Shown here piece after piece: positions 4,527 to 24,036 of a DNA stretch of 32,000 bases. Position 1 is the first letter of the stretch. Every line of letters starts with the position of its first letter. The DNA lies in the NCBI GenBank assembly GCA_963692945.1, contig OY843585.1, positions 330,001 to 362,000 on the forward strand, read 5' to 3'. Both the position numbers and the translations under genes were made by a program. Source of the DNA: Bdellovibrionales bacterium (lineage in GTDB: Bacteria > Bdellovibrionota > Bdellovibrionia > Bdellovibrionales > UBA1609). Under the pieces are notes generated by a model. The model saw only the letters and a program-made list of their open reading frames with translations, did no database searches and had not been told where the DNA came from.

Positions 4527-4654
4527 TAATAGGTCCTCCTTAAATTTGTTGAGATGGGGGTAAAAGTTTTTATTACAAAAATCTTTAGGATTTGACCTCT
4601 TACAAATTTTAGAATTTCAAATACAATGTTTTTATTTTTTAGAATTTCATTCAT
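4526..4654 (-). CDS. Small ORF 3 of the tandem repeat array (42 codons)
   Basis: AAAGGAG directly follows the TAA of the 4668-5843 gene, and the ATG at 4654 is 8 nt downstream of GGAG. Encodes MNEILKNKNIVFEILKFVRGQILKIFVIKTFTPISTNLRRTY. Confidence 0.3.
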   Translation of the reverse strand: MNEILKNKNIVFEILKFVRGQILKIFVIKTFTPISTNLRRTY

Positions 4655-4667
4655 TAACATGTCTCCT

Positions 4668-5843: not shown

Positions 5844-7318
5844 TTTTTACCTCTGTCTGTGCAATAAGATTTAATAAGAGTTGTCATATGCTCAAAAATA
5901 TTTTTATGTTTTCCATTAGCACTTGATAGTGTTCGTTTAGAACGAGAATCGCTAGAAGAACTGGCACTGCCAGATGTCTTTTTACCACTTCCCTTTCCTA
6001 AAGGGTCGTTTTCATGGTTGCTTGCTTCTCCCCCACCAGAGCGAACTCCTCCTGCAAAACTACCAAAACCTCTTCCATAAGAGCTTCTAGAAGATCTTGC
6101 TCCTTTTCCTAATCCCTCTTCATCATCGTCTGTATTTCCTGCTAAAGAACTTCCTGGTGCCAAAGGAGGAGAACCGGTTGGAGTTTTTGAATCTTTTTTA
6201 TCATTAGCTTCTGCTTCTGCTGTAGAGTCTTCTGTTCCACTTGATGGTGGGAGTTCATTACCAGGGTCTGGTGGTGTTTCTCCAGCACTGGGGTCGTCTA
6301 TGTTTGCAGTTAGACAATTACTTCCAGTACATGTTGATGGGTTTTCACCAAGGTCAAAAGTTGAACCACTACCTGGGACGGTAGGTCTATTAGGTGGTGG
6401 TGGAGTTTTATCTTTTTTGCCGTCGTTATCTTTTAAATGGTCAGCAATTGTATAATTTATAGCTGCATGTAAAAGATTCTCTAGACCTTGACCCATGGCA
6501 GCTGCTGCTTTTTCTCTTTCTTTTGAACATTTGGTTTTAAATTCTTCAGCACTTGTAATTTCTGATGAACATAACTTTTCAATGGCTTCATCTTTATTTT
6601 CAACTTCTTTTGTAATTTCTGATGATGTACAGGATTCTAAGGCTTGTTTTATTTCTTTATCTATTTCTTCTATATTTTGTACTAATCCTACAAAGTTTGT
6701 TTTTTTTGTTATCTTATCTATACAAGTTTCACAGGCTTTAATTTTTTCTGTACAGGCACTTTCACACTTACGAATGTCAGTGTAACACATACCTGATACA
6801 GCAGCATTTACACCAGCTAAACCAAGATTCAGATTACCTATTTTCTCAGTTACTTGTCCTCCATTACTTGGTTTATTAGCTGCTACAACAGCTCCGTACA
6901 TTGTTCCACCTCTTCCAAGGTATGTGGATGCTGTAGTCAACTTTCTTGCTGTACAAGTGTCTTCCACTTTCCCCGGAGCATCAGCATTACATTCTATTGG
7001 GTCACCATCACCTTCTCCTGCTTCAGCTTTATTAAATGGAGAGTAGGCCGTTAAAGGATTAGGACCAGTGTGCTGCCTCTTAGCACTATTAGGTACTTCT
7101 GTCTTAACAGAAGAGGAAGTTTGATAATAATTACAAAATTTATTTTCCTCACCACAGGCTTTCATTCTTTTTTGTTCTATTTGGAATGCTTTGACTGCAT
7201 CAACATTTTCAGATGAAGCTTGATGAGAGTTAAAAAGAAAGTTAGGATTAAACATAAACATAAACATAAACATAAACGATTTTAATAATTTAAAAATTAT
7301 TGATAAAAGATTTTTCAT
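5834..7318 (-). CDS. Secreted Cys-rich / low-complexity protein A, first gene of the cluster (494 aa)
   Basis: ATG preceded by AAGGATGGG. Hydrophobic N-terminus with an (FM)4 repeat, a Cys-rich central helical region (CESACTEKIKACETCIDK...), and a Pro/Gly/Ser-rich C-terminal half ending in NIFEHMTTLIKSYCTDRGKNCQ. Confidence 0.75.
   Translation of the reverse strand: MKNLLSIIFKLLKSFMFMFMFMFNPNFLFNSHQASSENVDAVKAFQIEQKRMKACGEENKFCNYYQTSSSVKTEVPNSAKRQHTGPNPLTAYSPFNKAEAGEGDGDPIECNADAPGKVEDTCTARKLTTASTYLGRGGTMYGAVVAANKPSNGGQVTEKIGNLNLGLAGVNAAVSGMCYTDIRKCESACTEKIKACETCIDKITKKTNFVGLVQNIEEIDKEIKQALESCTSSEITKEVENKDEAIEKLCSSEITSAEEFKTKCSKEREKAAAAMGQGLENLLHAAINYTIADHLKDNDGKKDKTPPPPNRPTVPGSGSTFDLGENPSTCTGSNCLTANIDDPSAGETPPDPGNELPPSSGTEDSTAEAEANDKKDSKTPTGSPPLAPGSSLAGNTDDDEEGLGKGARSSRSSYGRGFGSFAGGVRSGGGEASNHENDPLGKGSGKKTSGSASSSSDSRSKRTLSSANGKHKNIFEHMTTLIKSYCTDRGKNCQ
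7250..7278. repeat. Hexanucleotide repeat (AAACAT)4 plus a partial unit, encoding FMFMFMFMF in the signal peptide of protein A
   Basis: Direct read: aaacat x4 at 7250-7273, followed by aaacg. Confidence 0.95.
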
Positions 7319-7340
7319 ATTTTTCCCATCCTTAAAATTT

Positions 7341-7382
7341 CTTACTTCTTACTTCTTACTTCTTTCTTCTTACTTCTTTCTT
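7341..7382. repeat. Six tandem heptamers (CTTACTT/CTTTCTT) 23-64 nt upstream of the protein A start codon
   Basis: Direct read: cttactt x3 (7341-7361), ctttctt, cttactt, ctttctt. Confidence 0.9.
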
Positions 7383-7511
7383 ATTTCCCTATAAAACTTA
7401 TCGGAAATATAAGATTTATAAAAAAGTCGTTCTTTTATTTTAAGAGAAAAATCTTTTTCAGCCTAAATTTTTCATTTTTTTAGCTAAAAAGTGTCTCATT
7501 TTAATACATTT

Positions 7512-7816
7512 TAACAAAACTCTCGTTCAAAAAAGTATTTTCTACTCTTATTTTAACGAGCTTTTCATCACAAGAGGGGACACTCTTTTACAAAACTCTA
7601 GTGTTACCTTTCTTATTTTCTGACCTTTCATCGTAAAAGGGGACACTCTTCAAGCTCAAAAAGTAAAAAAGGTATTCCTAGAGAAAAACTTCTGTTTTTC
7701 GCACTTTTGTTTTTCGCATCACCGGTTTTCTGAGTTTTCATCGTAAGAGGGACACTCTTCAAATCTCGTTAAACTAAGAGTTACTTAATAGGCTTATATT
7801 TGAACTAGAGTTTTGT
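7512..7816. repeat. Cluster R1 of modular hairpin (MITE/REP-like) elements, three cores
   Basis: Termini are TAACAAAACTCTCGTTC (7512-) and TGAACTAGAGTTTTG (-7815), with an internal CAAAACTCTAG at 7591. Core copies TTTCATC(G/A)(T/C)AA.AGGG(G)ACACTCTT at 7563-7589, 7626-7653 and 7736-7762. Also holds the GGTATTCCTAGAGAAAAACTTCTGTTTTTCGCA module seen in R4 and R5. Confidence 0.85.
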
Positions 7817-7922
7817 AAAAACGACAGTATCCGAATTTACAAATAAAAAATGAAAAAAAGCCCTGCTTCTTGATAGTTTATTCATACTCTCTTTTTGCTT
7901 TATATAGATATTGAGAAAAACA

Positions 7923-8966
7923 ATGTCTAAAAAAGCTAAGCAAGTTTTAAATCTTAAAAATCAAACCTTAGAATTTAAAAAAGGAATTCATAAGAAAAAC
8001 ACAGCTTTTAGTCATGATAAGTTTTTTAAACTCTTCTATTCTAATCCTGACTTAGCTACAGAACTCTTTGAACTCATCTTTTCAAAAAAAGAAATGAAAG
8101 CTTATGATTGGAAAAAACTAAAAATAGAAAAAGATAGTTTTGAAGATAAAAGAGCTGATCTTATTTTCTCTGTTCCTTTTAAAAAAATTCCTAAAATGAA
8201 ACTCACCCTCTTTATTCTTCTAGAACATAAGTCCTATTATGATAAAAACCTCTTCCATCAACTTTTAGATTATCAAGTGTTAATTCACCGACATAATAAA
8301 GACCATCTTGGTTATTTACAACCTATAATTCCTGTTTTGTTTTATCATGGGAAACAAACTATGAAGTGGAAATCTTCTTTTTTAGAAGAGAATTTTAGAG
8401 ATTCTCTTTTTAAAATTCCTTTAGAAACAAGAAAAAACATGTTAAACTACAAGTTGAAAGTAATAGATGTGAATGCTCCAAGAGTCCAAAGAGCTGGTAA
8501 GGATAAAAGGTTTAAGGGGCGAGGGGCGTTGAGTTTATTGAGGGAAATATGGAGTTTAAAGAACCCAACAGATTCTAAGTTGCGTGAGATTGTTTTAGAT
8601 TTTAAGGAGTTGTTTAAAAGTATAGAAGGTCAACGAAAAGCGGATGTTTTGTTAGGAATTACTGAGTATCTGAAACAGAACACGGGGTTGAGTGCAAAGA
8701 ATTGGAAGAAGATTGAGGATTTGATGGTAAAAGAGGGATTTTTAAAAAGAGGAGGAACTATGATAAATATGAGAAAGATTATAAGAGAACGAGCTCTGGA
8801 AGAAGGACTGGAAGAAGGACAACGAAAAGGACGACAAGAGGGGCGACAAGAGTTTAAAAAAGTTATTTTGAATATGTTGAAGAAAAAACTTGATATCTCT
8901 TTGATTTCGGAAGTGACAGGTTTGTCTAAAGCAGAGATTAAAAAACTAAAAAACAGTCATAAGTGA
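7923..8966 (+). CDS. Rpn/YhgA-like recombination-promoting nuclease (PD-(D/E)XK, 'transposase_31' family), full-length form
   Basis: N-terminal HDKFFKLFYSNPDLATELFELIF, then RADLIFSV...LTLFILLEHKSYYDKNLFHQLLDY (a D...E-x-K nuclease motif in the YhgA-like arrangement), and a C-terminal VILNMLKKKLDISLISEVTGLSKAEIKKL helix-turn-helix-like tail. The ORF track starts at TTG 7911; the first ATG is at 7923. Confidence 0.8.
   Translation: MSKKAKQVLNLKNQTLEFKKGIHKKNTAFSHDKFFKLFYSNPDLATELFELIFSKKEMKAYDWKKLKIEKDSFEDKRADLIFSVPFKKIPKMKLTLFILLEHKSYYDKNLFHQLLDYQVLIHRHNKDHLGYLQPIIPVLFYHGKQTMKWKSSFLEENFRDSLFKIPLETRKNMLNYKLKVIDVNAPRVQRAGKDKRFKGRGALSLLREIWSLKNPTDSKLREIVLDFKELFKSIEGQRKADVLLGITEYLKQNTGLSAKNWKKIEDLMVKEGFLKRGGTMINMRKIIRERALEEGLEEGQRKGRQEGRQEFKKVILNMLKKKLDISLISEVTGLSKAEIKKLKNSHK
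8749..8762 (+). promoter_or_regulatory. Internal ribosome-binding site plus in-frame ATG inside the rpn-like gene
   Basis: AGAGGAGGAACT-ATG, with GGAGG at 8751-8755 and the ATG at 8760 in frame (residue 284). A second in-frame ATG lies at 8769. The same SD+ATG block heads the two downstream cassettes. Confidence 0.6.
8760..8966 (+). CDS. Candidate internally initiated C-terminal small protein (RpnS-like, 68 aa) nested in the rpn-like gene
   Basis: In-frame ATG with a strong SD. The product is MINMRKIIRERA + 19-aa linker (LEEGLEEGQRKGRQEGRQE) + conserved tail. The same architecture occurs as separate genes at 9013 and 9327. Confidence 0.5.
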   Translation: MINMRKIIRERALEEGLEEGQRKGRQEGRQEFKKVILNMLKKKLDISLISEVTGLSKAEIKKLKNSHK

Positions 8967-9012
8967 TTTTTTAAATGTCTTTAAAGAGGGGCTTTTAAAA
9001 AGAGGAGGAACT

Positions 9013-9261
9013 ATGATAAATATGAGAGAGATTGTAAGAGAACGAGCTCGGGAAGAAGGACGACAGGAAGAACGAAAAAAATGGTTTAAAAACGGACAAA
9101 CTAGGGGACGACAAGAAGGGTTTAAAAAAGGACGACGAGAGGGACGACGAGAAAAACGACAAGAGTTTAAAGAAGTTATTTTGAATATGTTGAAGAAAAA
9201 ACTTGATATCTCTTTGATTTCGGAAGTGACAGGTTTGTCTAAAGCAGAGATTAAAAAATAG
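9013..9261 (+). CDS. Free-standing RpnS-like C-terminal cassette, copy 2 (82 aa)
   Basis: Same AAAAGAGGAGGAACTATGATAAATATGAGA head as at 8745-8774. The 39-aa linker has 4-residue periodicity (REEG RQEE RKKW FKNG QTRG RQEG FKKG RREG RREK RQE). The 84-nt tail (9175-9258) is identical to 8862-8945. Confidence 0.6.
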   Translation: MINMREIVRERAREEGRQEERKKWFKNGQTRGRQEGFKKGRREGRREKRQEFKEVILNMLKKKLDISLISEVTGLSKAEIKK

Positions 9262-9326
9262 TCATAAGTGATTTTTTAAATGTCTTCAAAGAGGGATTTT
9301 TAAAAAGAGGAGGAACTATAATAAAT

Positions 9327-9662
9327 ATGAAAAAGATTATAAAAGAACAAGCTATGGATAAAGAGTTTCAAGAAACTCTTAAAAAAGGGTTTCAAACTTG
9401 GATAAAAGAGCGTCAAAAAGGGTTTGAAGAAGCACAACGAGAATGGTTTCCAGAAGAGTCTGAAAAAGGGTTTAAAAAAGGGTTTAAAAAAGGACGACAA
9501 GAAGGACAACAAAAAGGACGACAAGAAGGACAACAAAAGTTTCAAAAAGTTATTTTGAATATGTTGAAGAAAAAACTTGATATCTCTTTGATTTCGGAAG
9601 TGACAGGTTTGTCTAAAGCAGAGATTAAAAAACTAAAAAATAGTCATAGAACAAAACTCTAA
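9327..9662 (+). CDS. Free-standing RpnS-like C-terminal cassette, copy 3 (111 aa)
   Basis: Same head, but the first ATG is mutated to ATA, so the start is the second ATG. 62-aa linker and an identical 84-nt tail (9549-9632). The last codons ACA AAA CTC TAA lie in the terminus of repeat cluster R2. Confidence 0.6.
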   Translation: MKKIIKEQAMDKEFQETLKKGFQTWIKERQKGFEEAQREWFPEESEKGFKKGFKKGRQEGQQKGRQEGQQKFQKVILNMLKKKLDISLISEVTGLSKAEIKKLKNSHRTKL

Positions 9663-9742
9663 TTTTACTTTTTGAGCTTGAAGAGTGTCCCCTTTTACGA
9701 TGAAAAGCTCGTTAAAGTAAAAGTTCACACACGAGAGTTTTG
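9651..9742. repeat. Cluster R2: single hairpin element
   Basis: ACAAAACTCTAA...TTTTACTTTTTGAGC-[TTGAAGAGTGTCCCCTTTTACGATGAAA, 9678-9705]-GCTCGTTAAAGTAAAAGTTCACACACGAGAGTTTTG. The arms are self-complementary. Confidence 0.85.
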
Positions 9743-9783
9743 AAAAAGTTGACTTTTTCAAGAAAATTTTGCATTTTAACTTA

Positions 9784-10485
9784 ATGCCTATTGTTCTTAT
9801 TTTTCTTTGTTTTTTTTGTATGTTTGGCTGTGTGAATGCTGAAAAAACACAAGCTAGATTTACAGCAAAAAAATATTATGAGATATCTCTCCAATATAAA
9901 AAAGAAGGAAAGTTATCTAAAGCTCTTAAAACTTTAGAAGAACTTAAAAAACATTTTTCCTATGATTCTTACAGCTTGTCAGCCTCTTTACTTATAGCAG
10001 ATATTCATTTTGAAAGAAGAGACTATGTTCTTGCAGCTGGTCTCTACACACAATTTCAAAAAATTTATCCAAAAACGAAAAGTCAATATGTTCACTATCA
10101 GCTAGGACGTTCTTATTTTTATCAACTTCCTAAGTCTGCTGATAAAGATTTATCTGTAGGAGAGTTGGCTTTACAAAACTTTCAACCTCTTTTACGAAAA
10201 TCCTCTCCTTACAAAAAAGAAGCTAAAAAATATGTGAAAAAAATTCAGACTCTAAAATCTAAAAAAGATTTTCTAGCGGCTCTTTTTTATTCAAAGAAAA
10301 AATGGAATCCATCGGCTTGGAAGCGATTGCAAATTCTTATAAAAGAGTATCCTGAAAGTCCTTTTGTCCCAGAGGCTCTTTTGCTTAGCTATAAACTGGC
10401 TAAAAAAATGAATAAAAATCCTAGCTCTTTTAAAAACCGTTTACTCAAAGAATTTCCAAAATCTGAACAAGCAAAATCCTTATGA
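9784..10485 (+). CDS. bamD: Outer membrane protein assembly factor BamD-like TPR lipoprotein
   Basis: Signal peptide with lipobox (CMFGC). The TPR-like pattern and the ...YPKTKSQYVHYQLGRSYFYQ..., ...SSPYKKEAKKYVKKI..., ...EYPESPFVPEALLL... segments match the BamD/ComL layout. The ORF track starts at TTG 9769; the first ATG is at 9784. Confidence 0.65.
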   Translation: MPIVLIFLCFFCMFGCVNAEKTQARFTAKKYYEISLQYKKEGKLSKALKTLEELKKHFSYDSYSLSASLLIADIHFERRDYVLAAGLYTQFQKIYPKTKSQYVHYQLGRSYFYQLPKSADKDLSVGELALQNFQPLLRKSSPYKKEAKKYVKKIQTLKSKKDFLAALFYSKKKWNPSAWKRLQILIKEYPESPFVPEALLLSYKLAKKMNKNPSSFKNRLLKEFPKSEQAKSL

Positions 10486-10991
10486 AATCATCAACTGTTT
10501 TTTTAGCAGAGAAAGAGATTCAAAAGTTAGTTAAGGGCTTAGCTAAAGAAATCAATCATGAATATAAAGATATAAAAGAAGCCCTTGTTTTGATTTGTCC
10601 TCTTAAAGGGTCTTTGTTTTTTTTGGCTGACCTCATTCGCCATTTAGAAATACCTGTTGTTTTAGATTTTATTTCTATAGAGACAAGGCAAAAAGGAAAC
10701 TTTCATATTTTAAAAGACATAAAAGTTCCTATTAAAAATAAAAATGTTCTTATTATTAAGGAGATTTTAAATGCAGGGAGAAAATTACTTTTTCTCAAAA
10801 AAAGAATTGAAGCGAGTTCTCCTCAAAGTGTGAAAATAGCAACTCTTATTGATAAACCTTCTCAAAGACAGTTGAATTTACAATCTGATTTTTTTGGACT
10901 TTCTACAGATGATCGTTACATTTTTGGTTATGGCTTAGACCATGAAGAAAAATATAGAAATCTTAGAAGTTTTCATCTTTTCACTCAATAA
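10482..10991 (+). CDS. hpt: Hypoxanthine phosphoribosyltransferase family protein with an atypical PRPP-binding motif
   Basis: LKGSLFFLADLIR, ILKDIKVPIKNKNVLII, IATLIDKPSQRQ and YIFGYGLDHEEKYRNL align with HPRT. The motif normally read as VLIVEDI(I/V)D(S/T)G is VLIIKEILNAG here. The start overlaps the bamD stop (ATGA). Confidence 0.75.
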   Translation: MKSSTVFLAEKEIQKLVKGLAKEINHEYKDIKEALVLICPLKGSLFFLADLIRHLEIPVVLDFISIETRQKGNFHILKDIKVPIKNKNVLIIKEILNAGRKLLFLKKRIEASSPQSVKIATLIDKPSQRQLNLQSDFFGLSTDDRYIFGYGLDHEEKYRNLRSFHLFTQ

Positions 10992-11088
10992 CAAAACTCT
11001 AGTTCTTCCTTTTTATTTTTAATATTTCTTTATAAAACGAGTATAGTTTTTGTATATAGTTTATGGTAAACTAAAAGAAGGAGAAATA

Positions 11089-11826
11089 ATGAGTAATAAA
11101 TCTACTGTTTTGGAGGCTAAAGCTTATTTTGCAGAAATTCGGAAACTCTTCAAAGAACGAAAAGAGTGCGATAAAGAAATGGCAGAGGAGCGAAGAAAAG
11201 AACGAGAAGAGCGAAAAAAAGAACGAAAAGAGTACGATAAAAAAATGGCAGAAGAGCGAAGAAAAGAACTAGAAAAAGAGCGAGAAGAGTACGATGAAAA
11301 AGCAGCAGAAGATATTAAAGAACTCCGAGCTAGCCAAAAAGCAACTGCCAAACAAATAAAAGAGACGGATCTAAAATTCAATGATTACTGGGATAATTGG
11401 GATAATTGGGATAACTGGGATAACTTGATGGAATCTTTATATAAACGAGATTTAGTGAAACTTCTAAAACAAAAAGGTATCAAAGTTGATCTGACTGCAA
11501 CAAATATAGTGAAAAAACATGGGGAACCACAATTTGAATTTGATATTTTAGCTTCCAATGGGGAGGAGCTCGTTGTTGTAGAAGTGACAACAACTTTGTA
11601 TATTAAAGAGTTGAATTATTTCATTAAGAAATTAAATAGAGTTACGGATTTTATGCCAGAATTTAAAGGTAAGAAAGTTTATGGAGCCGTTGCGTATTTA
11701 AAAGCCAATAAATCTTCTGACAAAAGAGCTGAGAAAGAGGGTTTGTTTGTGATAAGAGCGACAGAAAGCAGTTCCAATATTGTTAATAAGCAGGATTTTA
11801 AACCCAAATCTTTTTCAAAACTCTAG
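11089..11826 (+). CDS. DUF3782-like protein: N-terminal coiled coil + C-terminal PD-(D/E)XK-type domain, copy 1
   Basis: AAGGAG lies 6 nt before the ATG at 11089 (the ORF track's TTG 11050 extension is unlikely). FEFDILASNGEELVVVEVTTTL is a D...E-V-(K/T) motif, read as EVK in copy 2. The layout (coiled coil, then the short nuclease-like domain, ...KVYGAVAYL...GLFVI) matches DUF3782-type proteins as I remember them. The last codons TCA AAA CTC TAG lie in the element terminus. Confidence 0.55.
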   Translation: MSNKSTVLEAKAYFAEIRKLFKERKECDKEMAEERRKEREERKKERKEYDKKMAEERRKELEKEREEYDEKAAEDIKELRASQKATAKQIKETDLKFNDYWDNWDNWDNWDNLMESLYKRDLVKLLKQKGIKVDLTATNIVKKHGEPQFEFDILASNGEELVVVEVTTTLYIKELNYFIKKLNRVTDFMPEFKGKKVYGAVAYLKANKSSDKRAEKEGLFVIRATESSSNIVNKQDFKPKSFSKL

Positions 11827-12093
11827 TTCAGTTCTACTAATACCCTTTTCTTTTTAGGAGATTTTCGTCGTAGGAGCTCCTCAAACACCTAAAAAGAAAA
11901 GGGCTCTTACTTATTGTTTGAACTAGAGAAAACCTACTGGTTTTCGCATTTTACTTATAATAAATTTGCGAAAAACATCAGTGCGAAAAACGAAGGTTTT
12001 CTCTAGGAATACCTTTCTTATTTTCTGAACTTGAAGAGTGTCCCTCTTACGATGAAAGGTCAGAAAATAAGAAAGGGTAACACGAGAGTTTTG
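11816..12093. repeat. Cluster R4 of modular hairpin elements, two cores
   Basis: Unit 11816-11928 runs CAAAACTCTAGTTCA...CCCTTTTCTTTTTAGGAG-[core variant 11863-11885]-CCTAAAAAGAAAAGGG...TGAACTAGAG. Unit 12001-12093 runs CTCTAGGAATACCTTTCTTATTTTCTGA-[core 12031-12057]-TCAGAAAATAAGAAAGGGTAACACGAGAGTTTTG. Between them lies a GTTTTCGCA...TGCGAAAAC hairpin and the CGAAAAAC module. Confidence 0.85.
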
Positions 12094-13152
12094 TTAAATA
12101 TTGTCTGTCACATGTTGATAAACAGTCATTATAGTAACCTTAAGAGCACTCACTAAAGGAATGCTAATAATCATTCCTAAAACACCCATAAACTGAGCTC
12201 CTGCAATAATAATCACAATCACAGTTAAAGGGTGAAGATCTACAATGCGAGCAAGAAGAATAGGAACTAAAACTATGGAATCAATAAATTGAGTGAAATA
12301 AAAAATACCTAACACAATAAGAATCTGGCTGGCTTCATAATCATTCACAAGAGCCACTAGAAAAATAACAATACTAGCGACAATGGGACCTACATAAGGA
12401 ACAAGATTAGCTAAAGCCGCAAAACCTGCAAGCAAAATAGCAAAAGGGAATTTGAAAAAAAACAAAGTGACTCCCACAATGATTCCTACAATAAGAGCTT
12501 CCAATAGACGACCTCTGATAAAGACACCAATTTGTTGATTGATTTTATAATGCAGACCTAGAAACATTTCAAAAAGCTGATTGGGAACAAGAGGGTATAA
12601 ATACCTTGTCAGCCCCCACTCATTTCTGACCATAAAAAAAGCAAAGAAAGGAGCTAGAAGTAAAATGGTAAAAGATTGGGCTAAAGTTGAAGGAAGGTCT
12701 TGTAAAAAAGCAGTTCCTAAAGATTGTAAAAAACTTTCTAAATTAGAAGACAAATCAAAACTTCTCATAAAAAACAAATGAGTTTCTAAACCCTCTTGCC
12801 AAGTTTTTATAAGGACAGTTGTTTTTTGAACATAATTTGGAAACTCCGTTTTTAAATTTAAGAATTGTTGAGATAAAAAGGGAAACATCCAGGCAATCAA
12901 ACCGGAAAGAGCCCCTATCGTGCTAACAAAAACAATGGATGCCGATAAAAGTCTTGGCAATCCCCACTTACAAAGAAGATTCACAAGGGGCAAAAGAATA
13001 AAACTTATCACAAAAGCAAGAAGTAAAGTTATAAAAAGCCCTTTGATAATGAAAAGAGCCGAGAGGAGAAAACTAAAAATAAGTAAGAAAAAAGAGATTC
13101 TAAAAAAATTTAACCGACGGATTCGTTTTTTTGTATCTAATAAAGGAATCAT
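12094..13152 (-). CDS. AI-2E family transporter (PerM/YhhT-like permease)
   Basis: Multi-pass membrane protein of ~350 aa with the characteristic ...LANLVPYVGPIVASIVIFLVAL... segment. Its stop codon directly abuts the R4 terminus. Confidence 0.75.
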   Translation of the reverse strand: MIPLLDTKKRIRRLNFFRISFFLLIFSFLLSALFIIKGLFITLLLAFVISFILLPLVNLLCKWGLPRLLSASIVFVSTIGALSGLIAWMFPFLSQQFLNLKTEFPNYVQKTTVLIKTWQEGLETHLFFMRSFDLSSNLESFLQSLGTAFLQDLPSTLAQSFTILLLAPFFAFFMVRNEWGLTRYLYPLVPNQLFEMFLGLHYKINQQIGVFIRGRLLEALIVGIIVGVTLFFFKFPFAILLAGFAALANLVPYVGPIVASIVIFLVALVNDYEASQILIVLGIFYFTQFIDSIVLVPILLARIVDLHPLTVIVIIIAGAQFMGVLGMIISIPLVSALKVTIMTVYQHVTDNI

Positions 13153-13652
13153 TTTGTGGAATGCACCTGAAGTATTTTTTGCTCTGCTTTTTTCAACCTA
13201 TGACTTAAAATAAGACAAAGTTGGTTTAAAATTTTTATACCCGTTAAAGGTCGTCTCTTTAAAATGAGATTCAAATCAGGTTTATAAAAAGCTAAAAGTT
13301 GAGAGTTTGTAGCGGATTGTGCAAACATGGTTTGATAAGCTTCATTTTGTAAGAGAGCAAGTTCTGCAAAAAAATCTCCCACCTTCAAGGAGGAAACAAG
13401 GGAGGGGTCTTCTTGGGAATCAGGTGATCCATGAAGAATATTCACTTGTCCTTTTAAAATAATATACATTCCATTTCCAGAAGAGGGTTTAAAAATAATT
13501 TCTCCTGTCGTATAAATTCTTTTATGAAAAATCTTTTGTATAAAGTGGAGTTCTTTATTGGTTAGATTAGAAAAGAGAGGGCAATCTTTAATGTATTTTA
13601 ATTCCCCATGCTTTTTTTTATTAAAAAAATTATTCCAAAAGATTTCTAACAT
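13149..13652 (-). CDS. Cyclic-nucleotide-binding domain protein (stand-alone CAP effector-type domain)
   Basis: FSNLTNKELHFIQKIFHKRIYTTGEIIFKPSSGNGMYIILKGQVNI...VGDFFAELALL... is the cNMP-binding fold signature, and no DNA-binding HTH follows. The preferred start is the ATG at 13652 (GGAG 5 nt upstream, 2 nt after the upstream stop) rather than 13694. Its stop overlaps the transporter start (ATGA). Confidence 0.7.
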   Translation of the reverse strand: MLEIFWNNFFNKKKHGELKYIKDCPLFSNLTNKELHFIQKIFHKRIYTTGEIIFKPSSGNGMYIILKGQVNILHGSPDSQEDPSLVSSLKVGDFFAELALLQNEAYQTMFAQSATNSQLLAFYKPDLNLILKRRPLTGIKILNQLCLILSHRLKKAEQKILQVHSTK

Positions 13653-13654
13653 TT

Positions 13655-14293
13655 TTACTCCAAAGTTTGAATAAGGTTTTCTTTTAAAAGCCAACCTTTT
13701 TTATGTTGAGAGGTTTTAACTTGTCCCCACTTACCCCGTTGTTTTAAAAAAACCAAATCAGATCCTTTTCTAATCGTTTCTACAGAAAGAGCTTTCTCAA
13801 AAGGAGAGTTTAAAAGTTCTAGCTCCTTTAAATTAGAAACTCTTTTTTTAAGGTTAAAAAAACCACTTAAAAAGACAATCGTCAAGCCACAAAACCAGAG
13901 AGCGATCATTTTAAAGTTTCTTTTAAAAAGGAAAGCTTGTTTTAGGGAAAAAACCAGACAAATTAAGGATAAAAGGGCAAAAAGCAAGCTTCCTATTTGC
14001 CAGATAAAAGGGGCTAAAGAGACCTCCTCTTTTAAAGTTTTTAAAGTCAGATAGGAAGGGAAGAAAAGAGATTGATAAAAATTTTTCCGAAATAAAATGA
14101 CGGCAGAAGTTTTATCTTCTGATTTAAGCTTTTGTAAAGCTTTATTGTGTAAGTCAACAGGGGATAAGGGTGGTTGATTTTCAAAAAGAGATTCCAAATC
14201 AGCGGATTTAGAGTCAGAGAAACCCGAAGCAGAAAGTCCATTAGAAAAACCGAAAGACAAATAGATATAAAAAAACATTCTCAAAAGAAGCAT
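13655..14293 (-). CDS. Hypothetical membrane protein with signal peptide, two or three TM segments and an SH3b-like C-terminus
   Basis: N-terminal MLLLRMFFYIYLSFGFSNGLSA, hydrophobic stretches (IWQIGSLLFALLSLICLVF, MIALWFCGLTIVFLSGFF), and a C-terminal GKWGQVKTSQHKKGWLLKENL that resembles bacterial SH3 motifs. Confidence 0.5.
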   Translation of the reverse strand: MLLLRMFFYIYLSFGFSNGLSASGFSDSKSADLESLFENQPPLSPVDLHNKALQKLKSEDKTSAVILFRKNFYQSLFFPSYLTLKTLKEEVSLAPFIWQIGSLLFALLSLICLVFSLKQAFLFKRNFKMIALWFCGLTIVFLSGFFNLKKRVSNLKELELLNSPFEKALSVETIRKGSDLVFLKQRGKWGQVKTSQHKKGWLLKENLIQTLE

Positions 14294-14316
14294 ACTTGGA
14301 CTATAATAGGATAATT

Positions 14317-15657
14317 ATGAAAAATGTTAAACCCTACAATTCATTATTAACTTCTTTTTTAAAAGAAATAGAAAAACAAAGTCTTTTTTTGAATAAGCCC
14401 AGAGATTCGGATCCCTCCAAACGAGAAAGTTACTACAAAAATCTTGAGCAAATCGCTCATTTAAGAGGACGCCCTGCTTATTATCCTTATATCAGTTCTG
14501 GTGTAGGTCATGGGGCTTTGGTTCAACTTCTTGATGGAAGTGTTAAGTTGGATTTTATTTGTGGGATTGGACCTCATATTTTAGGTCATTCTCATCCAGA
14601 GATTTTAAAAGCCTCTCTTCGTGGAGCTTTAGAAGATACAACCATGCAAGGTCATCTTCAGTTTAGTTCCATTTATAAAGAGTTTTTGGAAAAACTTCTA
14701 TTTTTAGCTCGTAGGAAGTCCCGATTGAGACAGGCTTGGTTATGTCCTTCAGGTTCTATGGCTAATGAGAATGCTTTAAAAGTGATTCGTCAAAAAAAAG
14801 AAGGAGCAAAAACGATCCTCGCTTTTGAAAGGGCTTTTGCGGGTCGGACAACTCTTATGGCAGAAATCACAGACAATCCAAGTATTAAACAGGGCTTGCC
14901 TTCTTACGATGAAGTGTTAAGAGTTCCCTTTTCTCCTGAAGATCCAGAAAAATCTTTAGAGGTGTTAAAAAAACATTGGAACCAAAAGGGAAAGGACATA
15001 GCTTGTTTTATGGTAGAGCTTATGCAAGGGGATGGAGGTTGTTATAGAGCTTCTAGAGATTTTTTTGTTCCGCTGTTTGAATTTTGTAGAGAAAAACAGA
15101 TAGCGATTTGGTTGGATGAAGTTCAAACTTTTGCAAGAAGTGGAGAGTTTTTTGGTTTTGAAAAATTAAATCTTGGAGAGTATGTGGATGTTTGCACTAT
15201 AGGTAAGGCCTTGCAATTATCGGCTTCGTTATGGACTAAGGAATACAACCCTAAGCCGGGACTGGTTTCAGGAACTTTTTCATCTAGCTCTACAAGTTTG
15301 CACAGTGGGCTAGAGGTTCTAAAAATTTTAGATGAAAAAAATTATATGGGGGAACAGGGAAGAATTTCTCAAATTTATGAACAATGGGTTTCTCGACTGA
15401 AAGTTTTAGAACAGGAGAATTTAGTGTCAGAAATAGAAGGTTGGGGCTTGATGATAGGAGTGACTCCTTTAGATGGAAATCCAGAAATGGTGAAAAAATT
15501 ATTACAGGTTTTATTTCAAAAAGGATTGATGTGTTATTCTTGTGGTTCTGATTTGAAAAAAAGACTTAGGTTTCTTTTGCCAGCTGTTGTTCAAAATGAA
15601 AATTTAGATCAAGCTTTAGAAATACTGAGAGAAGCTCTTTTAGAACTGAAAAAATAG
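14317..15657 (+). CDS. Class III (PLP-dependent) aminotransferase
   Basis: GIGPHILGHSHPEI, PSGSMANENALK, WLDEVQTFARSGEFFGFE and TIGKALQ (putative PLP lysine) follow the class III order. The substrate cannot be assigned. The ORF track starts at TTG 14296; the first ATG is at 14317. Confidence 0.75.
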   Translation: MKNVKPYNSLLTSFLKEIEKQSLFLNKPRDSDPSKRESYYKNLEQIAHLRGRPAYYPYISSGVGHGALVQLLDGSVKLDFICGIGPHILGHSHPEILKASLRGALEDTTMQGHLQFSSIYKEFLEKLLFLARRKSRLRQAWLCPSGSMANENALKVIRQKKEGAKTILAFERAFAGRTTLMAEITDNPSIKQGLPSYDEVLRVPFSPEDPEKSLEVLKKHWNQKGKDIACFMVELMQGDGGCYRASRDFFVPLFEFCREKQIAIWLDEVQTFARSGEFFGFEKLNLGEYVDVCTIGKALQLSASLWTKEYNPKPGLVSGTFSSSSTSLHSGLEVLKILDEKNYMGEQGRISQIYEQWVSRLKVLEQENLVSEIEGWGLMIGVTPLDGNPEMVKKLLQVLFQKGLMCYSCGSDLKKRLRFLLPAVVQNENLDQALEILREALLELKK

Positions 15658-15710
15658 AAAGTTCAATTTGAAGGAATGTTTTGAGAGTTTTTATTAGAGG
15701 GATTCAATTT

Positions 15711-16706
15711 ATGAAATTAAAAGTGTTTTTTTTAATCAGTCTTTGTCTTGCAGGTTTATTTGTTTATACTTTTTTTACTCCCATTCATTTCAAGGGTCAA
15801 AGTGTTATTTTAGATGTTTCACCCGGAAAAACTTTTTACCAATTGGCTGAGGAGTTGGAAGAAAAAAATCTTATTAGAGAGTCCTTTTATTTTAAATTAT
15901 TGATTCGTCTGTTTGGTTCTCCTATTTTACAGGTGGGGGAATACCGTCTTTCTCAAGGAGAATCTCTTTGGACACAGTTTCAAAAAATCAGAAATGGAGA
16001 TATTCATTATGTTTTTTTAACTTTTAAAGAGGGGTTGAATCATTATGAAATGGGACAAATACTTAAAAATTATGGTTGGAAGGAGTATGAAAATTTTTTA
16101 AATCTAATAGAGGATAAATCTTTTATTAAAAGTCTTTTAAAAGAAGACCTTTCTTCTTTGGAAGGATATTTATTTCCAGACACCTATGATTTAAGCAAGT
16201 ATATGACAGCAGAAATTCTTATAACTAGAATGGTTAAAAATTTTTTAAAGAACTATGAAAAGATTGTAAAAACACCAACTTCTTTTTCTCGTCATGAAAT
16301 TGTAACTTTTGCAAGTTTGATTGAAAAAGAAACAGGAGTCCCTCAAGAGCGTTCCATTATTTCTTCAGTCTTTTACAATCGTCTTAAGAAAAAGATGAGA
16401 CTTCAAACAGACCCCACTATTTTGTATAGTCTTTATTTGAAAAAGGGGTTTTCTATAGAAAAAAATATTCGTAAAAAAGATATTCTTATGCCCTCCCCTT
16501 ACAACACTTATGTGATTTATGGACTTCCTAAGGGACCTATTGCTAATCCAGGAAGGGCAAGTTTGCAAGCGGTTTTAAAACCAGCTTCAACGGATTATTT
16601 TTATTTTGTAAGTCGTAATGATGGAACTCATGTTTTTTCTAAAACTTATGAAGAGCATAAAAAATATGTTTATAAATATCAAATAAAGCCTTTTCAAAAA
16701 CTCTAG
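15711..16706 (+). CDS. mltG: Endolytic murein transglycosylase MltG (YceG-like)
   Basis: N-terminal TM helix, GEYRLSQGES, ASLIEKETGVPQERSIISSVFYNRLKKKMRLQTDPTILY, YNTYVIYGLPKGPIANPGRASLQAVLKP and YFYFVSRNDGTHVFSKTYEEH. The ATG at 15711 follows GAGGG. The last codons CAA AAA CTC TAG lie in the R5 terminus. Confidence 0.85.
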   Translation: MKLKVFFLISLCLAGLFVYTFFTPIHFKGQSVILDVSPGKTFYQLAEELEEKNLIRESFYFKLLIRLFGSPILQVGEYRLSQGESLWTQFQKIRNGDIHYVFLTFKEGLNHYEMGQILKNYGWKEYENFLNLIEDKSFIKSLLKEDLSSLEGYLFPDTYDLSKYMTAEILITRMVKNFLKNYEKIVKTPTSFSRHEIVTFASLIEKETGVPQERSIISSVFYNRLKKKMRLQTDPTILYSLYLKKGFSIEKNIRKKDILMPSPYNTYVIYGLPKGPIANPGRASLQAVLKPASTDYFYFVSRNDGTHVFSKTYEEHKKYVYKYQIKPFQKL

Positions 16707-17022
16707 TGTGTGAACTTTCATTTTCACGAGCTTTTCATCACAGGAGAGATGTTCTTCAAATCTCGTTAAAATGAAAGTTTTAACATAGAGAAAAACTTCT
16801 GTTTTTCGCAACTCTGGTTTTTGTATAGAAAAAACTTCGTTTTTTGCAGGGTTGTTTTTCGCACTTGAGCTTTCAGATTCAAAACTTTTTTAAAAACCAG
16901 TAGGTTTTCTCTCGTTCATTATAAGTAAGAATCTTTTTCTTTTTAGGAGTTTGAGGAGTGTCCCCTTTTACGACGAAAACCTCCTAAAAAGAAAAAGATA
17001 TTAGAACTGAACGAGAGTTTTG
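16695..17022. repeat. Cluster R5 of modular hairpin elements, two cores
   Basis: Unit 16695-16790 runs CAAAAACTCTAGTGTGTGAACTTTCATTTTCACGAG-[degenerate core 16733-16759]-ATCTCGTTAAAATGAAAGTTTTAACATAGAG. Next come the GAGAAAAACTTCTGTTTTTCGCA modules. The last unit runs CTCTCGTTCATT...CTTTTTCTTTTTAGGAG-[core 16951-16978]-CTCCTAAAAAGAAAAAGATATTAGAACTGAACGAGAGTTTTG. Confidence 0.85.
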
Positions 17023-17094
17023 TTAAATATTTTTTTATAAAACTTGGCATGGTTTTTGCATATAACTTATGGTAAACTAAAAAAAGGAGAAATA

Positions 17095-17715
17095 ATGAGT
17101 AATAAATCTACTGTTTTAGAGGCTAAAGCTTATTTTGCAGAAATTTGGAAACTTTTCAACGAGCAAAAAGAGTACGATAAACAAACGGCAATGGAGCGAA
17201 AAGAATATGAAAAAAAAGCAGCAGAAGATATTAAAGAGCTCCGAGCTCTCCAAAAAGCAACTGCCAAACAGCTAAAAGAGACTGATCTAAAATTCAATGG
17301 TCACTGGGGTAAGTTGATGGAGACTTTAGTTGAAGGAGATTTAGTGAAACTTCTAAAACAAAAAGGTATCCAAGTTGATCGGACGGCAACAAATATACTG
17401 AAAAAACACGGGGAACAACAATTTGAATTTGATATTTTAGCTTTCAATGGGGAAGAGATCGTTGTTGTAGAAGTGAAAACAACTTTAGATATTAAAGAGT
17501 TGAATTATTTTATTAAGAAATTAAATAGAGTTACGGATTTTATGCCAGAATTTAAAGGTAAGAAAGTTTATGGAGCCGTTGCGTATTTAAAAGCCAATCA
17601 ATCTTCTGACAAAAGAGCTGAGAAAGAGGGTTTGTTTGTGATCAGAGCGACAGGAAGCAGTTCCAGTATTATTAATAAGCAGGGGTTTAAACCCAAATTT
17701 TTTCAAAAACTCTAG
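17095..17715 (+). CDS. DUF3782-like coiled-coil + PD-(D/E)XK-type protein, copy 2
   Basis: Paralog of 11089-11826 with the same SD/ATG context. FEFDILAFNGEEIVVVEVKTTL gives an intact D...E-V-K. About ten mismatches over the last ~185 nt compared with copy 1 (by eye). Lacks the in-frame expansions of copy 1. Confidence 0.55.
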   Translation: MSNKSTVLEAKAYFAEIWKLFNEQKEYDKQTAMERKEYEKKAAEDIKELRALQKATAKQLKETDLKFNGHWGKLMETLVEGDLVKLLKQKGIQVDRTATNILKKHGEQQFEFDILAFNGEEIVVVEVKTTLDIKELNYFIKKLNRVTDFMPEFKGKKVYGAVAYLKANQSSDKRAEKEGLFVIRATGSSSSIINKQGFKPKFFQKL

Positions 17716-17876
17716 TTCTTCCCCTCCTTGTTTTCTGACCTTTCATCGTAAGAGGGACACTCTTCAAATCTCGTGAAAATAAAAATTCACACACTAGAGT
17801 TTTGTAAAAGAGTGTCCCCTTTTACGACGAAAATCTCCTAAAAAGAAAAAGATATTAGAACTGAACGAGAGTTTTG
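17704..17876. repeat. Cluster R6 of modular hairpin elements, two cores in opposite orientation
   Basis: CAAAAACTCTAGTTC..., core at 17741-17767, ATCTCGTGAAAATAAAAATTCACACACTAGAGTTTTG, inverted core at 17807-17833, then CTCCTAAAAAGAAAAAGATATTAGAACTGAACGAGAGTTTTG. It ends 1 nt from the stop of the 17878-20061 gene. Confidence 0.85.
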
Positions 17877-17877
17877 T

Positions 17878-20061
17878 TTAAGGACAATACTCCGACAAAT
17901 TATCAGGCTGAGGGTCTAAAGTGCTGACCAAATCGCAAGAAATTGTTTTTATAGAGTAACCACTTCTCCCTCCTCTTTCACAACCACTTGGTATGGGTTT
18001 CAGTTGTCTTCTAGAGCTATGGCTCGTGTGGGAATAGCATTTAGCAAACATTCGTTCTGGAAAACTATAGCTTTCATATCTGTCTAATTGTGTAGTTGGA
18101 GCCCAAGAGGTTAAAAAATGAGAAGGGTCTTTAACAAGATAAGGATAGCGAATGTTCTTATTGGAGTAAGCCATTGTTAGAGGGGATCGATTTATATCCA
18201 CTGGATTGCTGTTTTTGGCATAAAAGAAAGGGACAAAAGAGTTTGCAATTTTTGTTGTTGCTAAATTGAGTTCCAAATAATCTTTACTATAGGGGTAACC
18301 AAAATCTCCACGAATGTATCCTGGATATTCTCCAGAACGAGCAATCTTTTCTCTTATAAGAGGATCACAGATTTTTTTATTCTCACCAATCAATTTACAA
18401 ATTTTTGGGAAATAGACTTCCATATAATTATTGGAAATAGAGTAATGGGTGATATCAAATACATCTGGAAACACAGCCATCAGCTCCATCAATCTTACAA
18501 GGCCGAAAGCAGGGTCATTGCCGTCTGCAACAGCTAAAGGGTCTGGTGCCTTGCCAGTATTTAAATGGTCAAAAAAGGAAATATCAAACGGTGTTCTTAT
18601 AGAGGCAACAGCATCTGTTATTTGATGAATGTCACCATTATGACGAAGTAAAGCCGTTTTTATTAAAAAAGCTTTATGTGTGCCGTCTTTATGAAGTGTT
18701 TTATCAATAAGTCCCCATTCGTCTCCTGGGTAGCGAGAGTAATTGGGTTGCAAATTGTAAATTTGTAGTTGTGTTCTATTTGCGTCTGTAGCAGTCCCCA
18801 AGTCAATTTGATGTTTTAAAAGCAAGTCTTCATCTTTACCTGGTCCAATTCTCCCTCCAAAAGGTTTGGCAAAGGAGCTAGCCCTTAAAGGAGGAAGTTT
18901 TGTGTTCTCTAGTGGTGTAAAAAGTGGAGGGACTCCTCTGTAAGAAAAGCTTGCTTTCATTCCATAGTAAAGTATTAGGTTATCCTTTTTTTTATAGCCA
19001 AGGCTGAGCTTACCAAGATCGGGTTCAGGCGCTGGCCCGGTATTGAAATAAAAAAGATTTTTATGTGCATTAACAAAGGATTGAATAGTAGTGTTACTAG
19101 AAAAAGCATCTCTAGAGTCTATACCACCATCAATCAAATTTTGAATTTTTCCTCCACAACTGGCTTCAAATTTCATAAATTGCAATATGGGAAAAATATG
19201 TAAGGGTTCTAAAAACTCTGAGAAGTCTCTCTCTTTTAAAGAGTTATAAAATGTAGGGGGATTATAATTTTTTTTATTGGTGTAGTTTAAATTTTTACGA
19301 AATACTTTTTCAGCTCCTTTAGAAATGCTATAACCATCTAAGTCTTTTCCCACCTTTAAAGTTTTATTATAGAGGGTTTCTATCATGATCTTTCTATCTT
19401 TTTGGTCTAAGCGAAAGTGACTTAAAATCAAATTAGTCATCAACCAAGAAAGACCAGATTCTGAATTACAGATACCTTCAATAGCTCTTGCTGCGGCTTC
19501 TGTTTGAGCAGCAGCAGAGGCGTTCCAAGGTAAAAAACTAGCAGTGGGAGGATAGGTTGGAATCCTAGGGATTGAAACTTCATTATTTTTGCAATAGGAA
19601 TCACTACTATGACCATTCTGACCAACTCCTCTATTCCAGATAGCAGCATTGATACAAACGGAAAATGCTATATCACAATAGTTTCCATAAATACTATCAC
19701 TACAATTGTCAGGAGGTTCGGCTTTACATTCAATGCTTACCCCAGCACTGCCTGGACACCAGGCATTAGGGTCGGGAGAATGTCCTTCATATTTTTGTGC
19801 CATACCCCCTAAAATTCTATATCTCCAAGCCAGAAGCTTATAGTTTTGTCTCATTTGATAATTGATATGGGCAATGGCATTTAAAACCTCAGCTTGTTTT
19901 TTCGCTCCATATAGAGTTGCTAAGTCCAAAGAATTTTGCAGATTGATTTTGTCATGAACCACCAAAGCGACATTCAGAGTCATAGCAAATAAAATAAATA
20001 AAATTTGAAAGATAAAAACAAAAAAAATGGCCATTTGACCTTTAGAGTTTTTTAAAACCAT
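17878..20061 (-). CDS. Large TadG-like protein (Tad_N/TadE-G-like N-terminal domain), 727 aa
   Basis: The N-terminus SKGQMAIFFVFIFQILFILFAMTLNVALVVHDKINLQNSLDLATLYGA fits the pseudopilin-like TadE/G N-terminal pattern (G-x-x-A/V..hydrophobic helix..L-Q-N-x-x-D-x-A-x-L-x-G-A). The rest is Cys-containing with no family I recognise. Confidence 0.5.
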   Translation of the reverse strand: MVLKNSKGQMAIFFVFIFQILFILFAMTLNVALVVHDKINLQNSLDLATLYGAKKQAEVLNAIAHINYQMRQNYKLLAWRYRILGGMAQKYEGHSPDPNAWCPGSAGVSIECKAEPPDNCSDSIYGNYCDIAFSVCINAAIWNRGVGQNGHSSDSYCKNNEVSIPRIPTYPPTASFLPWNASAAAQTEAAARAIEGICNSESGLSWLMTNLILSHFRLDQKDRKIMIETLYNKTLKVGKDLDGYSISKGAEKVFRKNLNYTNKKNYNPPTFYNSLKERDFSEFLEPLHIFPILQFMKFEASCGGKIQNLIDGGIDSRDAFSSNTTIQSFVNAHKNLFYFNTGPAPEPDLGKLSLGYKKKDNLILYYGMKASFSYRGVPPLFTPLENTKLPPLRASSFAKPFGGRIGPGKDEDLLLKHQIDLGTATDANRTQLQIYNLQPNYSRYPGDEWGLIDKTLHKDGTHKAFLIKTALLRHNGDIHQITDAVASIRTPFDISFFDHLNTGKAPDPLAVADGNDPAFGLVRLMELMAVFPDVFDITHYSISNNYMEVYFPKICKLIGENKKICDPLIREKIARSGEYPGYIRGDFGYPYSKDYLELNLATTKIANSFVPFFYAKNSNPVDINRSPLTMAYSNKNIRYPYLVKDPSHFLTSWAPTTQLDRYESYSFPERMFAKCYSHTSHSSRRQLKPIPSGCERGGRSGYSIKTISCDLVSTLDPQPDNLSEYCP

Positions 20062-24032: not shown

Positions 24033-24036
24033 GAGA

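Follow-up and report, generated by a model that had tools for sequence, protein, structure and literature searches.

We analysed a 32,000 nucleotide (nt) stretch of the genome of a Bdellovibrionales bacterium (assembly GCA_963692945.1, contig OY843585.1, positions 330,001 to 362,000), called the window below, and found that it carries a family of mosaic palindromic repeats, 90-330 bp long, whose inverted ends meet the stop codons of seven genes. These ends, referred to here as termini, have the form (A)CAAAACTCT(A/C)G. The reading we tentatively favour, at a probability of roughly 0.45, is that the junctions formed at short A/T-rich microhomologies and were filtered by selection, and that the coincidence with stop codons is a by-product and not a function of the terminus. 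All statistics are based on this single 32 kb window and four relatives.

Searching the window for CAAAACTCTMG with at most one mismatch gave 14 matches against an expectation of 1.71 ± 1.37, and none of 100 shuffles reached 14. Thirteen of the 14 copies, which share the form CAAAACTCT(A/C)G, lie within three repeat clusters; the remaining match (26820, within priA) lies outside them and looks like chance. Eleven termini face non-repeat DNA, and 7/11 of these fall on a stop codon. All seven edges that point toward a gene 3′ end lie inside the stop codon or at most 1 nt from it, and the other four face the 5′ side of a gene, ending 26-197 nt before the start codon. TAA stands immediately before four of the 11 outward termini, compared to an intergenic TAA frequency of 3.6% (binomial P ~5e-4); one of the four is a non-genic TTTTAA (7509-7514) that can be aligned to native sequence of the relatives. 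Most copies have TTTWW in the 5 nt that adjoin the motif on its outer side, and the native ends of the AI-2E transporter gene (TTTAA) and mltG (TTTTC-AAAA) fit this pattern.

A preliminary description of this DNA had reported seven junctions between a terminus and a stop codon, and we recovered every one of them at the same position. Four genes end within the terminus, and all four of their proteins finish in -KL: the third RpnS-like copy (ACA AAA CTC TAA, 9651-9662), the Hjc/DUF3782-like copy 1 (TCA AAA CTC TAG, 11815-11826), and mltG and the Hjc/DUF3782-like copy 2, which share CAA AAA CTC TAG (16695-16706 and 17704-17715, respectively). At the other three junctions the terminus follows the stop codon, as in hpt (TAA|CAAAACTCTAG, 10989-11002) and, on the minus strand, the AI-2E transporter gene (CGAGAGTTTTG|TTA, 12083-12096) and the TadG-like gene (CGAGAGTTTTG-T-TTA, 17866-17880). 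Three of the genes at these junctions are:

15711-16706, plus strand: mltG, native up to ...CCT TTT CAA AAA (16700), with a repeat-derived CTC TAG (16701-16706) replacing the native TAA
12094-13152, minus strand: AI-2E transporter gene
17878-20061, minus strand: TadG-like gene

To see what these sites look like when empty, we used syntenic relatives reached via MltG homologs, namely L005 (MltG 79% identical) and L006 (77%), with L029 and L030 added for further comparisons of the mltG-TadG region. The window is collinear with L005 and L006 from 5831 to 27933, except for three insertions, an inverted bamD-hpt segment and a lost pair of astA and aldehyde-dehydrogenase genes. At the end of mltG the relatives read CCTTTTCAAAAA|TAA (..PFQK*), whereas the window reads CCTTTTCAAAAA|CTCTAG (..PFQKL*). 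Because the relatives share CAAAAA before their TAA, this stretch at the end of mltG is native and coding, and CTCTAG is all that the repeat contributed. MltG orthologs mostly end in ...PF(Q/K)K, some being a few residues longer, and -KL was seen in 0/60 examined. For hpt, CAATAA| is found in L005 and the window, with TGA in L006; the native stop occupies 10989-10991 and the terminus starts at the next base. The AI-2E gene ends in (A/T)ATTTAA| or ACATTTAA| in the window, L005 and L006, and here too the stop is native and the terminus begins with the next base. The TadG-like gene ends ..CCT TAA in the same three sequences, placing the terminus 1 nt off the native stop. Wherever a junction could be checked, 3-10 nt at the outer edge of the apparent terminus thus belong to the gene, namely TAA in hpt, TTTAA in AI-2E and TTTTCAAAAA in mltG.

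These comparisons change how the seven cases are to be counted. All are present, but the Hjc-like pair are paralogs, and the genes already possessed CAAAAA in the case of mltG and the TAA in those of hpt, AI-2E and TadG. As to whether native C-termini were replaced, mltG gained a leucine and lost its native TAA, and the stops of hpt and AI-2E are native. The possibility that the similarity is part of the genes and not of the repeat proved partly true at mltG, where repeat-free orthologs end ...TTT CAA AAA-stop and most of the "terminus" is genic.

The TadG-like end has some features of its own. L029 has no repeats at this site, and an exact terminus, CAAAACTCTCG, is found there (2770-2780) antisense to the last TadG-like codons (CGA GAG TTT TGC TCT TAA); the same gene end in L006 shows 9/11 identity to the terminus. 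In the window, the TadG-like end and the inverted terminus form an inverted repeat centred on the stop codon. The L029 match could be a chance run of E-F-C codons or a clue to the origin of the terminus.

The genes that do use the repeat's stop were compared with their homologs. Among the best 120 Hjc-like homologs, -KL occurs only in four from the source contig (FFQKL, AFTKL, AFQKL), and 34 others end ...FKPKxFS. Five Hjc-like paralogs carry the fused terminus, four in the protein database (including window copy 2) plus window copy 1. Since only homologs from the source contig end in -KL, the fusion of gene and terminus happened once and was inherited by the paralogs, and because the two window genes are such paralogs, at most six of the junctions are independent. 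In the Rpn family, the ending is ...KKLKNSHK or ...KNGS in the full-length gene, in orthologs and in a paralog with 95% identity, and ...NSHRTKL in the third C-terminal copy. A TAG or TAA of the repeat now serves as the stop of mltG, which gains L, of the Hjc-like family, which gains KL, and of the third RpnS-like copy, which gains RTKL. This makes three independent gene families on a repeat stop and three more junctions at native stops. The suggestion that the repeat brings its own stops, so that insertions into 3′ ends are tolerated, thus holds narrowly, for these genes. Reading inward from an AG-type end, frame 2 stops at the TAG after 11 nt and the other two frames after 18-171 nt, which is unremarkable at 34% G+C (33.7% for the window).

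The termini are the ends of a recognizable structure. The basic unit runs from the terminus through an arm of 20-35 nt to an asymmetric conserved core, the 27-nt loop TTTCATCGTAAAAGGGGACACTCTTCAA, and on to a complementary arm; the core has eight good copies in the window, and eight units of 91-327 nt are present in the 32 kb. Short elements consist of one unit plus an inverted terminus, and long elements of two inverted units flanking a central palindromic module, CTAGAGAAAAC...TTTTTCGCA. There are also incomplete copies, namely two half units and a stub. The copies are as follows:

7515-7590, plus strand: half unit of terminus CAAAACTCTCG, arm and core, with a TTTTA link to the next terminus; left edge of insertion A, after TTTTAA
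7591-7815, plus strand: long mosaic element with terminus, arm, core, arm, central CTAGAGAAAAAC/TTTTTCGCA module, arm, core, arm and inverted terminus
9652-9742, plus strand: short element of 91 nt that bounds insertion A on the right, a long hairpin carrying the conserved loop
10992-11020, plus strand: stub of terminus CAAAACTCTAG and a truncated arm, 0 nt past the hpt stop; left edge of insertion B
11816-12093, plus strand: long mosaic element, its inverted terminus 0 nt from the TAA of the AI-2E transporter gene
16701-17022, plus strand: long mosaic element that makes up the left part of insertion C; the motif is matched from 16696 on, but 16696-16700 is native mltG
17705-17804, plus strand: short element of 100 nt, chimeric, with arms of two types
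17805-17876, minus strand: half unit of terminus, arm and core, 1 nt from the TadG-like TAA; right edge of insertion C

Five complete elements have terminal inverted repeats, in which CAAAACTCT(A/C)G is mirrored by its reverse complement at the opposite end. The arms belong to three unrelated sequence types, and arm pairing closes the common loop in 6/8 units. Because unrelated arm types close one and the same loop, the structure, the loop and the ends are conserved and the stem sequence is free. The chimeric units (7719-7804 and 17716-17793) do not form this hairpin. Folding of the short elements is better than that of shuffles (z ~-2.8), with a basal stem of CTCTAG/CTAGAG followed by TTTTG. 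An intrinsic terminator scan called none of the elements, whose hairpins are 70-300 nt long and AT-rich, and Rfam 15 gave no family at the gathering threshold or at permissive ones, only sub-threshold matches to generic hairpins (miRNA precursors). No open reading frame (ORF) is conserved among the repeat copies. Comparison of the flanks revealed no constant direct repeat, though TAA/TTAA or a T-run is frequent on the outer side; the flanks may have been scrambled by inversion or recombination between copies. An idea based on CTAG avoidance or restriction sites was dropped, as neither the window nor the relatives show an unusual scarcity of CTAG.

All window repeats are confined to insertions A (7515-9742), B (10992-12093) and C (16701-17876), which are 2.2, 1.1 and 1.2 kb in length, and all three are missing in both L005 and L006. 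The terminus motif is absent from these two relatives and the core is absent at the insertion sites, L005 having no core at all. Each insertion holds a gene for a PD-(D/E)XK nuclease, of the Rpn/Transposase_31 family in A and Hjc/DUF8196-like in B and C, and insertion A also holds two free-standing copies of the Rpn C-terminal region. Between A and B lies the inverted segment:

7923-8966, plus strand: Rpn/Transposase_31 (PD-(D/E)XK) gene with native C-terminus ...KKLKNSHK, insertion A
9013-9261: second copy of the Rpn C-terminal region, insertion A
9327-9662, plus strand: third copy of the Rpn C-terminal region (RpnS-like), insertion A
9743-10991, plus strand: bamD-hpt segment, inverted relative to both relatives, between inverted termini (9732-9742 and 10992-11002)
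11089-11826, plus strand: Hjc/DUF8196-like gene copy 1, ending ...FSKL, insertion B
17095-17715, plus strand: Hjc/DUF8196-like gene copy 2, EVK intact, ending ...FQKL, insertion C

The Rpn C-terminal copies are arranged in tandem, span ~80 residues each with their own ribosome-binding site and ATG, and resemble free-standing small RpnS proteins. Hjc/DUF8196-like copy 1 has EVT in place of the E(V/A)K found in 88/120 homologs, which removes the catalytic lysine, and contains a (TGGGATAAY)x4 insertion, a WDN repeat encoding WDNWDNWDNWDN; copy 1 is probably inactive. None of the window ORFs encodes a DDE, HUH, Y1_Tnp/RAYT, or serine or tyrosine transposase or integrase, and no tRNA or tmRNA genes were found in the window. 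Insertion C showed no similarity to phage and plasmid collections.

The insertions did not simply split what was there. In L005 (2659-3863) and L006 (2570-3840), bamD-hpt follows the AI-2E gene on the same strand. On the bamD side in the window, the inverted terminus abuts AAAAAGTTGACTTT, and a promoter-like TTGACTTT...TTTTGCAT (TTGACT at 9749) is kept in the relatives. The hpt-proximal 160-190 nt of the next spacer are gone from the window, and the 196 nt distal to hpt are retained. Between mltG and the TadG-like gene, the four relatives have spacers of 47, 57, 6 and -11 nt; in the window this interval measures 1171 nt and is taken up by repeats and nuclease DNA. Since whole native spacers are missing, simple insertion is insufficient to explain the present arrangement. 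By eye, the "empty" spacers of the relatives looked like degenerate repeat copies, but local alignment against shuffles was unsupportive (0.05 for the L005 mltG-TadG spacer, 0.21 for the L005 AI-2E spacer and at least 0.09 for the others). Downstream of hpt in L006 (~2400-2560) there are two repeats of ~40 nt with AGATCTAG(A/G)GTT(C/T)TAAC, loosely like an inverted terminus; the alignment test was not significant. As for the lost gene pair, L005, L006 and L030 carry astA-like and aldehyde-dehydrogenase genes between an aminotransferase gene and mltG, and the short L029 contig covers only the aldehyde-dehydrogenase gene next to mltG; at 15657-15681 of the window both genes are lost and 23-53 nt are left.

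One diverged copy of the repeat was found outside the source genome, at 17253-17372 in L006, with a core 26/29 identical and an alignment score of 47 against a shuffle maximum of 28. It comprises a part like the central module and a terminus-like CAAAATCCCTAG, begins with a 17-nt direct duplication (AATACCTCATCCAAAAT), and fills the spacer between a TonB-like gene and a convergent 270-aa gene, a spacer of only 4 nt in the window (24033-24036) and in L005. Its presence indicates that the repeat family is older than the source species. Here the stop codon is abutted by the truncated core side and not by a terminus, so a flush junction with a stop codon needs no terminus; the L006 copy argues for trimming to the stop over terminus-specific insertion. 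Scanning genome and metagenome collections with the core pattern GAGTGTCCCN{3,4}TACGAYGAAA returned single matches in unrelated high-G+C contigs with no terminus motif nearby, and because these were chance matches only, the family was not found elsewhere in those collections. A literature search found no description of this repeat, and DUF3782 was named only in unrelated papers. The DUF8196 paralogs of another genome (L027 and L028) have no comparable motif at their stop codons. Two of these paralogs, 7 kb apart in a 43% G+C genome, share ~280 nt upstream and the first 13 nt past the stop (L027 6673-6800 compared with L028 6652-6690), beyond which one of them is interrupted by 127 inserted nt, a small element of another kind close behind a stop codon.

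The explanation by microhomology would run as follows. Insertions of palindromic repeats and nuclease genes have taken the place of all the spacer DNA that this compact genome could spare, and where their edges face the 5′ side of a gene they end just short of its promoter. Illegitimate recombination or deletion at A/T-rich identity between the gene end and the outer end of the repeat (TTTWW-CAAAAC) would produce the junctions, where the shared bases are TAA, TTTAA and TTTTCAAAA, and this joining may have taken place at insertion or in later deletions. With a genome of 1.56 Mb, selection would keep only those events that spare the reading frame and the promoter. Where a junction falls just upstream of the native stop, the TAG or TAA of the terminus substitutes for it and adds L, KL or RTKL. 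The observations behind this are that the relatives lack the insertions, that the stops are native, that gene and repeat share bases where they meet, that spacers have been lost, that fused ends were inherited and that inverted termini bound an inversion. Several points weigh against it. The termini are intact and nearly identical, and random erosion is not an obvious source of such ends. TAA stands immediately before termini at two junctions that are not native stops (7512-7514 and 17023-17025), which points to a genuine target or end sequence. At 34% G+C, a microhomology of 3-5 nt is weak evidence, with only mltG (9-10 nt) being strong, the independent junctions number six at most, and no mobility mechanism or enzyme has been demonstrated.

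Some of these points would fit better if the repeat, or the unit that carries it, transposes next to TAA/TTAA-like sites, with TAA stop codons being the targets most commonly tolerated. The preliminary description had raised integration at such a target, and the TAA beside the terminus is indeed there, as the native stop in hpt, AI-2E and TadG and as the non-genic TAA at 7512-7514. Beyond the excess of TAA directly before outward termini, a fifth TAA lies at 1 nt, native stops account for two or three of these TAAs and the TTTTAA of a promoter-side spacer for one, TTAA occurs in 4/5 of the contexts, and the intact inverted-repeat ends resemble those of miniature transposable elements with inverted repeats (MITEs). 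However, a consistent direct target duplication was found at none of the elements or insertions, the junctions of mltG, Rpn and Hjc lie elsewhere than at TAA, native spacers (47-190 nt) were lost instead of split, the window has no transposase gene, and the stop in L006 is abutted by a truncated, non-terminal part of a copy. We consider true target-site insertion rather unlikely, but a serious competitor of the microhomology reading in view of the TAA at non-genic junctions and the intact ends. Far less credible is plain coincidence, in which a short A-rich motif containing TAG would often meet stops in a compact AT-rich genome. There are only about six independent junctions, TAA, TTTAA and CAAAA are common words at 34% G+C, and spacers between convergent genes can be tiny (4 nt at 24033-24036 and 6 nt in L029), but the eight-fold enrichment of the motif, the position of 7/7 gene-3′-facing edges in or within 1 nt of a stop codon and the TAA adjacency (P ~5e-4) leave this reading disfavoured and very improbable.

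The palindromes could also have been kept after stop codons by selection, acting as bidirectional terminators or as stabilisers of mRNA 3′ ends (CAAAA-CTCTAG...CTAGAG-TTTTG). Their place after 3′ ends and between convergent genes (hpt/AI-2E, mltG/TadG and, in L006, TonB/270-aa gene), their symmetric A-tract and U-tract ends, and a hairpin that is kept with three arm sequences around one loop and folds better than shuffles would all agree with such a 3′ module. Set against this, no intrinsic terminator was called and the stems are AT-rich with a 27 nt loop, relatives do without repeats at the same gene ends, copies also occur in a divergent promoter region (7515-7815) and are piled up several to a site, the two chimeric units do not form the hairpin, and Rfam offers no match. 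We consider a selected 3′ role improbable. Finally, the termini might be sites of recombination or cleavage for the adjacent PD-(D/E)XK nucleases (Hjc/DUF8196-like and Rpn), which would cut at the base of cruciforms extruded by the palindromes, so that genes are moved or inverted along with the repeats. Every repeat copy in the 32 kb adjoins one of the three nuclease loci, on both sides of the gene, five Hjc-like paralogs of the source genome have the terminus fused to their 3′ end, homology between paralog flanks ends at the terminus, inverted termini bound an inversion, and Hjc is a family of four-way-junction resolvases. But the inverted termini enclose the genes inconsistently (direct termini at copy 1, outward-facing at copy 2), the similarity to Hjc is weak (37 bits; PDB E = 0.07), the DUF8196 paralogs of another genome lack such an end motif, copy 1 has lost its catalytic lysine, and the association is taken from 32 kb alone. 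We give this idea little credence, and it would be a long shot as well that palindromes and Hjc/DUF8196-like (and Rpn) nuclease genes form one mobile system in which cruciforms cut at CAAAACTCTAG ends drive gene-end insertion, cassette exchange and inversions. By analogy, such a system may have a REPtron-like layout on a Holliday-junction-resolvase fold, with the Y1 transposase replaced.

Overlap of small mobile repeats with gene ends is already known in other bacteria, and we judge the palindromic repeats to be a lineage-specific family whose behaviour is of this known kind. By analogy, the closest parallel is with QMITE1 and QMITE2 of Coxiella burnetii, which reach 1-50 bp into functional genes at their 3′ ends (for example ubiB 2 bp, kdgK 1 bp, ruvB 6 bp), can supply C-terminal residues and a stop (enhC), and are hot spots for IS1111 (Wachter et al. 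2018, PMC5896051). Like them, the window repeats are small inverted-repeat elements with a stable stem that overlap gene 3′ ends and have other mobile genes nearby. Unlike them, they are mosaic, with three arm types, a large conserved loop and a central module, their neighbours are PD-(D/E)XK nucleases and not an IS110-family transposase, and no direct repeats were found at their ends; there is no sequence similarity between the two. Correia elements of Neisseria and the RUP and ERIC MITEs have terminal inverted repeats, are ~100-160 bp long, form long hairpin transcripts near gene ends and have frequent stop codons in their reading frames, and Correia elements also have a TA duplication and an integration host factor (IHF) site (review PMC2229807). 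Inverted ends and hairpins are shared with the window repeats, whereas no TA duplication or IHF-like site could be demonstrated in the latter and no parent insertion sequence is visible in the window. With regard to MITEs in general, the window repeats have terminal inverted repeats and are short, non-coding and multi-copy, but they fit this class incompletely, as neither a target duplication nor a transposase-bearing parent was found in the window.

Repetitive extragenic palindromic (REP) sequences, which are imperfect palindromes of 20-40 nt, and bacterial interspersed mosaic elements (BIMEs) of proteobacteria alternate in orientation, form mosaic clusters, often lie behind stop codons or in the gap between convergent genes, and flank the gene of their presumed mover enzyme, the REP-associated tyrosine transposase (RAYT), an arrangement known as a REPtron. 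REPs at most ~15 nt from a stop codon are reported to affect translation. The window repeats likewise alternate in orientation and form mosaic clusters, but their units are 3-10 times longer (hairpins of 70-100 nt with a 27-nt loop) with inverted ends of 11-12 nt, the window has no Y1/HUH (RAYT) gene, and the genes they flank are of another enzyme fold. Mycobacterial interspersed repetitive units (MIRUs) are intergenic and their ends overlap the flanking stop and start codons; they are direct tandem units with small ORFs, located within operons between co-directional genes, and so differ from palindromes with inverted ends. The attC site of integrons is an imperfect palindrome that starts at or overlaps the stop codon of the cassette gene, with conservation of structure and not of sequence. 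In the window there is no integrase, RYYYAAC/GTTRRRY is unmatched save for GTTAAAT at two right-hand junctions, the left junctions do not fit, and the stems, notably the 27-nt loop, are far larger than in attC.

Repeats of other kinds were also seen in the window. A tandem repeat of ~137 nt is present three times (68-100% identical) at 4241-4642, between ORFs 2856-4277 and 4668-5843, and these two ORFs have similar 3′ ends over 158 nt (2855-3012 and 4667-4824). At 7335-7385, immediately upstream of a 494-aa gene (5834-7318), lies a short tandem repeat of CTTCTTA/CTTACTT type with none in the L006 spacer, and the product of this gene has an N-terminal MFMFMFMF run; both tracts are slippage-prone.

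For annotation, -KL tails together with the terminus motif flag gene ends that are derived from the repeat, and because what looks like a terminus may be partly genic, the limits of an element are best drawn by comparison with the empty sites of relatives. As the window exemplifies, a compact genome can have its gene ends remodelled by small palindromic repeats together with selfish nuclease genes, which replace spacers, swap stop codons, add short C-terminal tails and set up inversions such as that of bamD-hpt. If the link between nuclease genes and palindromes were true genome-wide, it would be an undescribed way of mobilising repeats.

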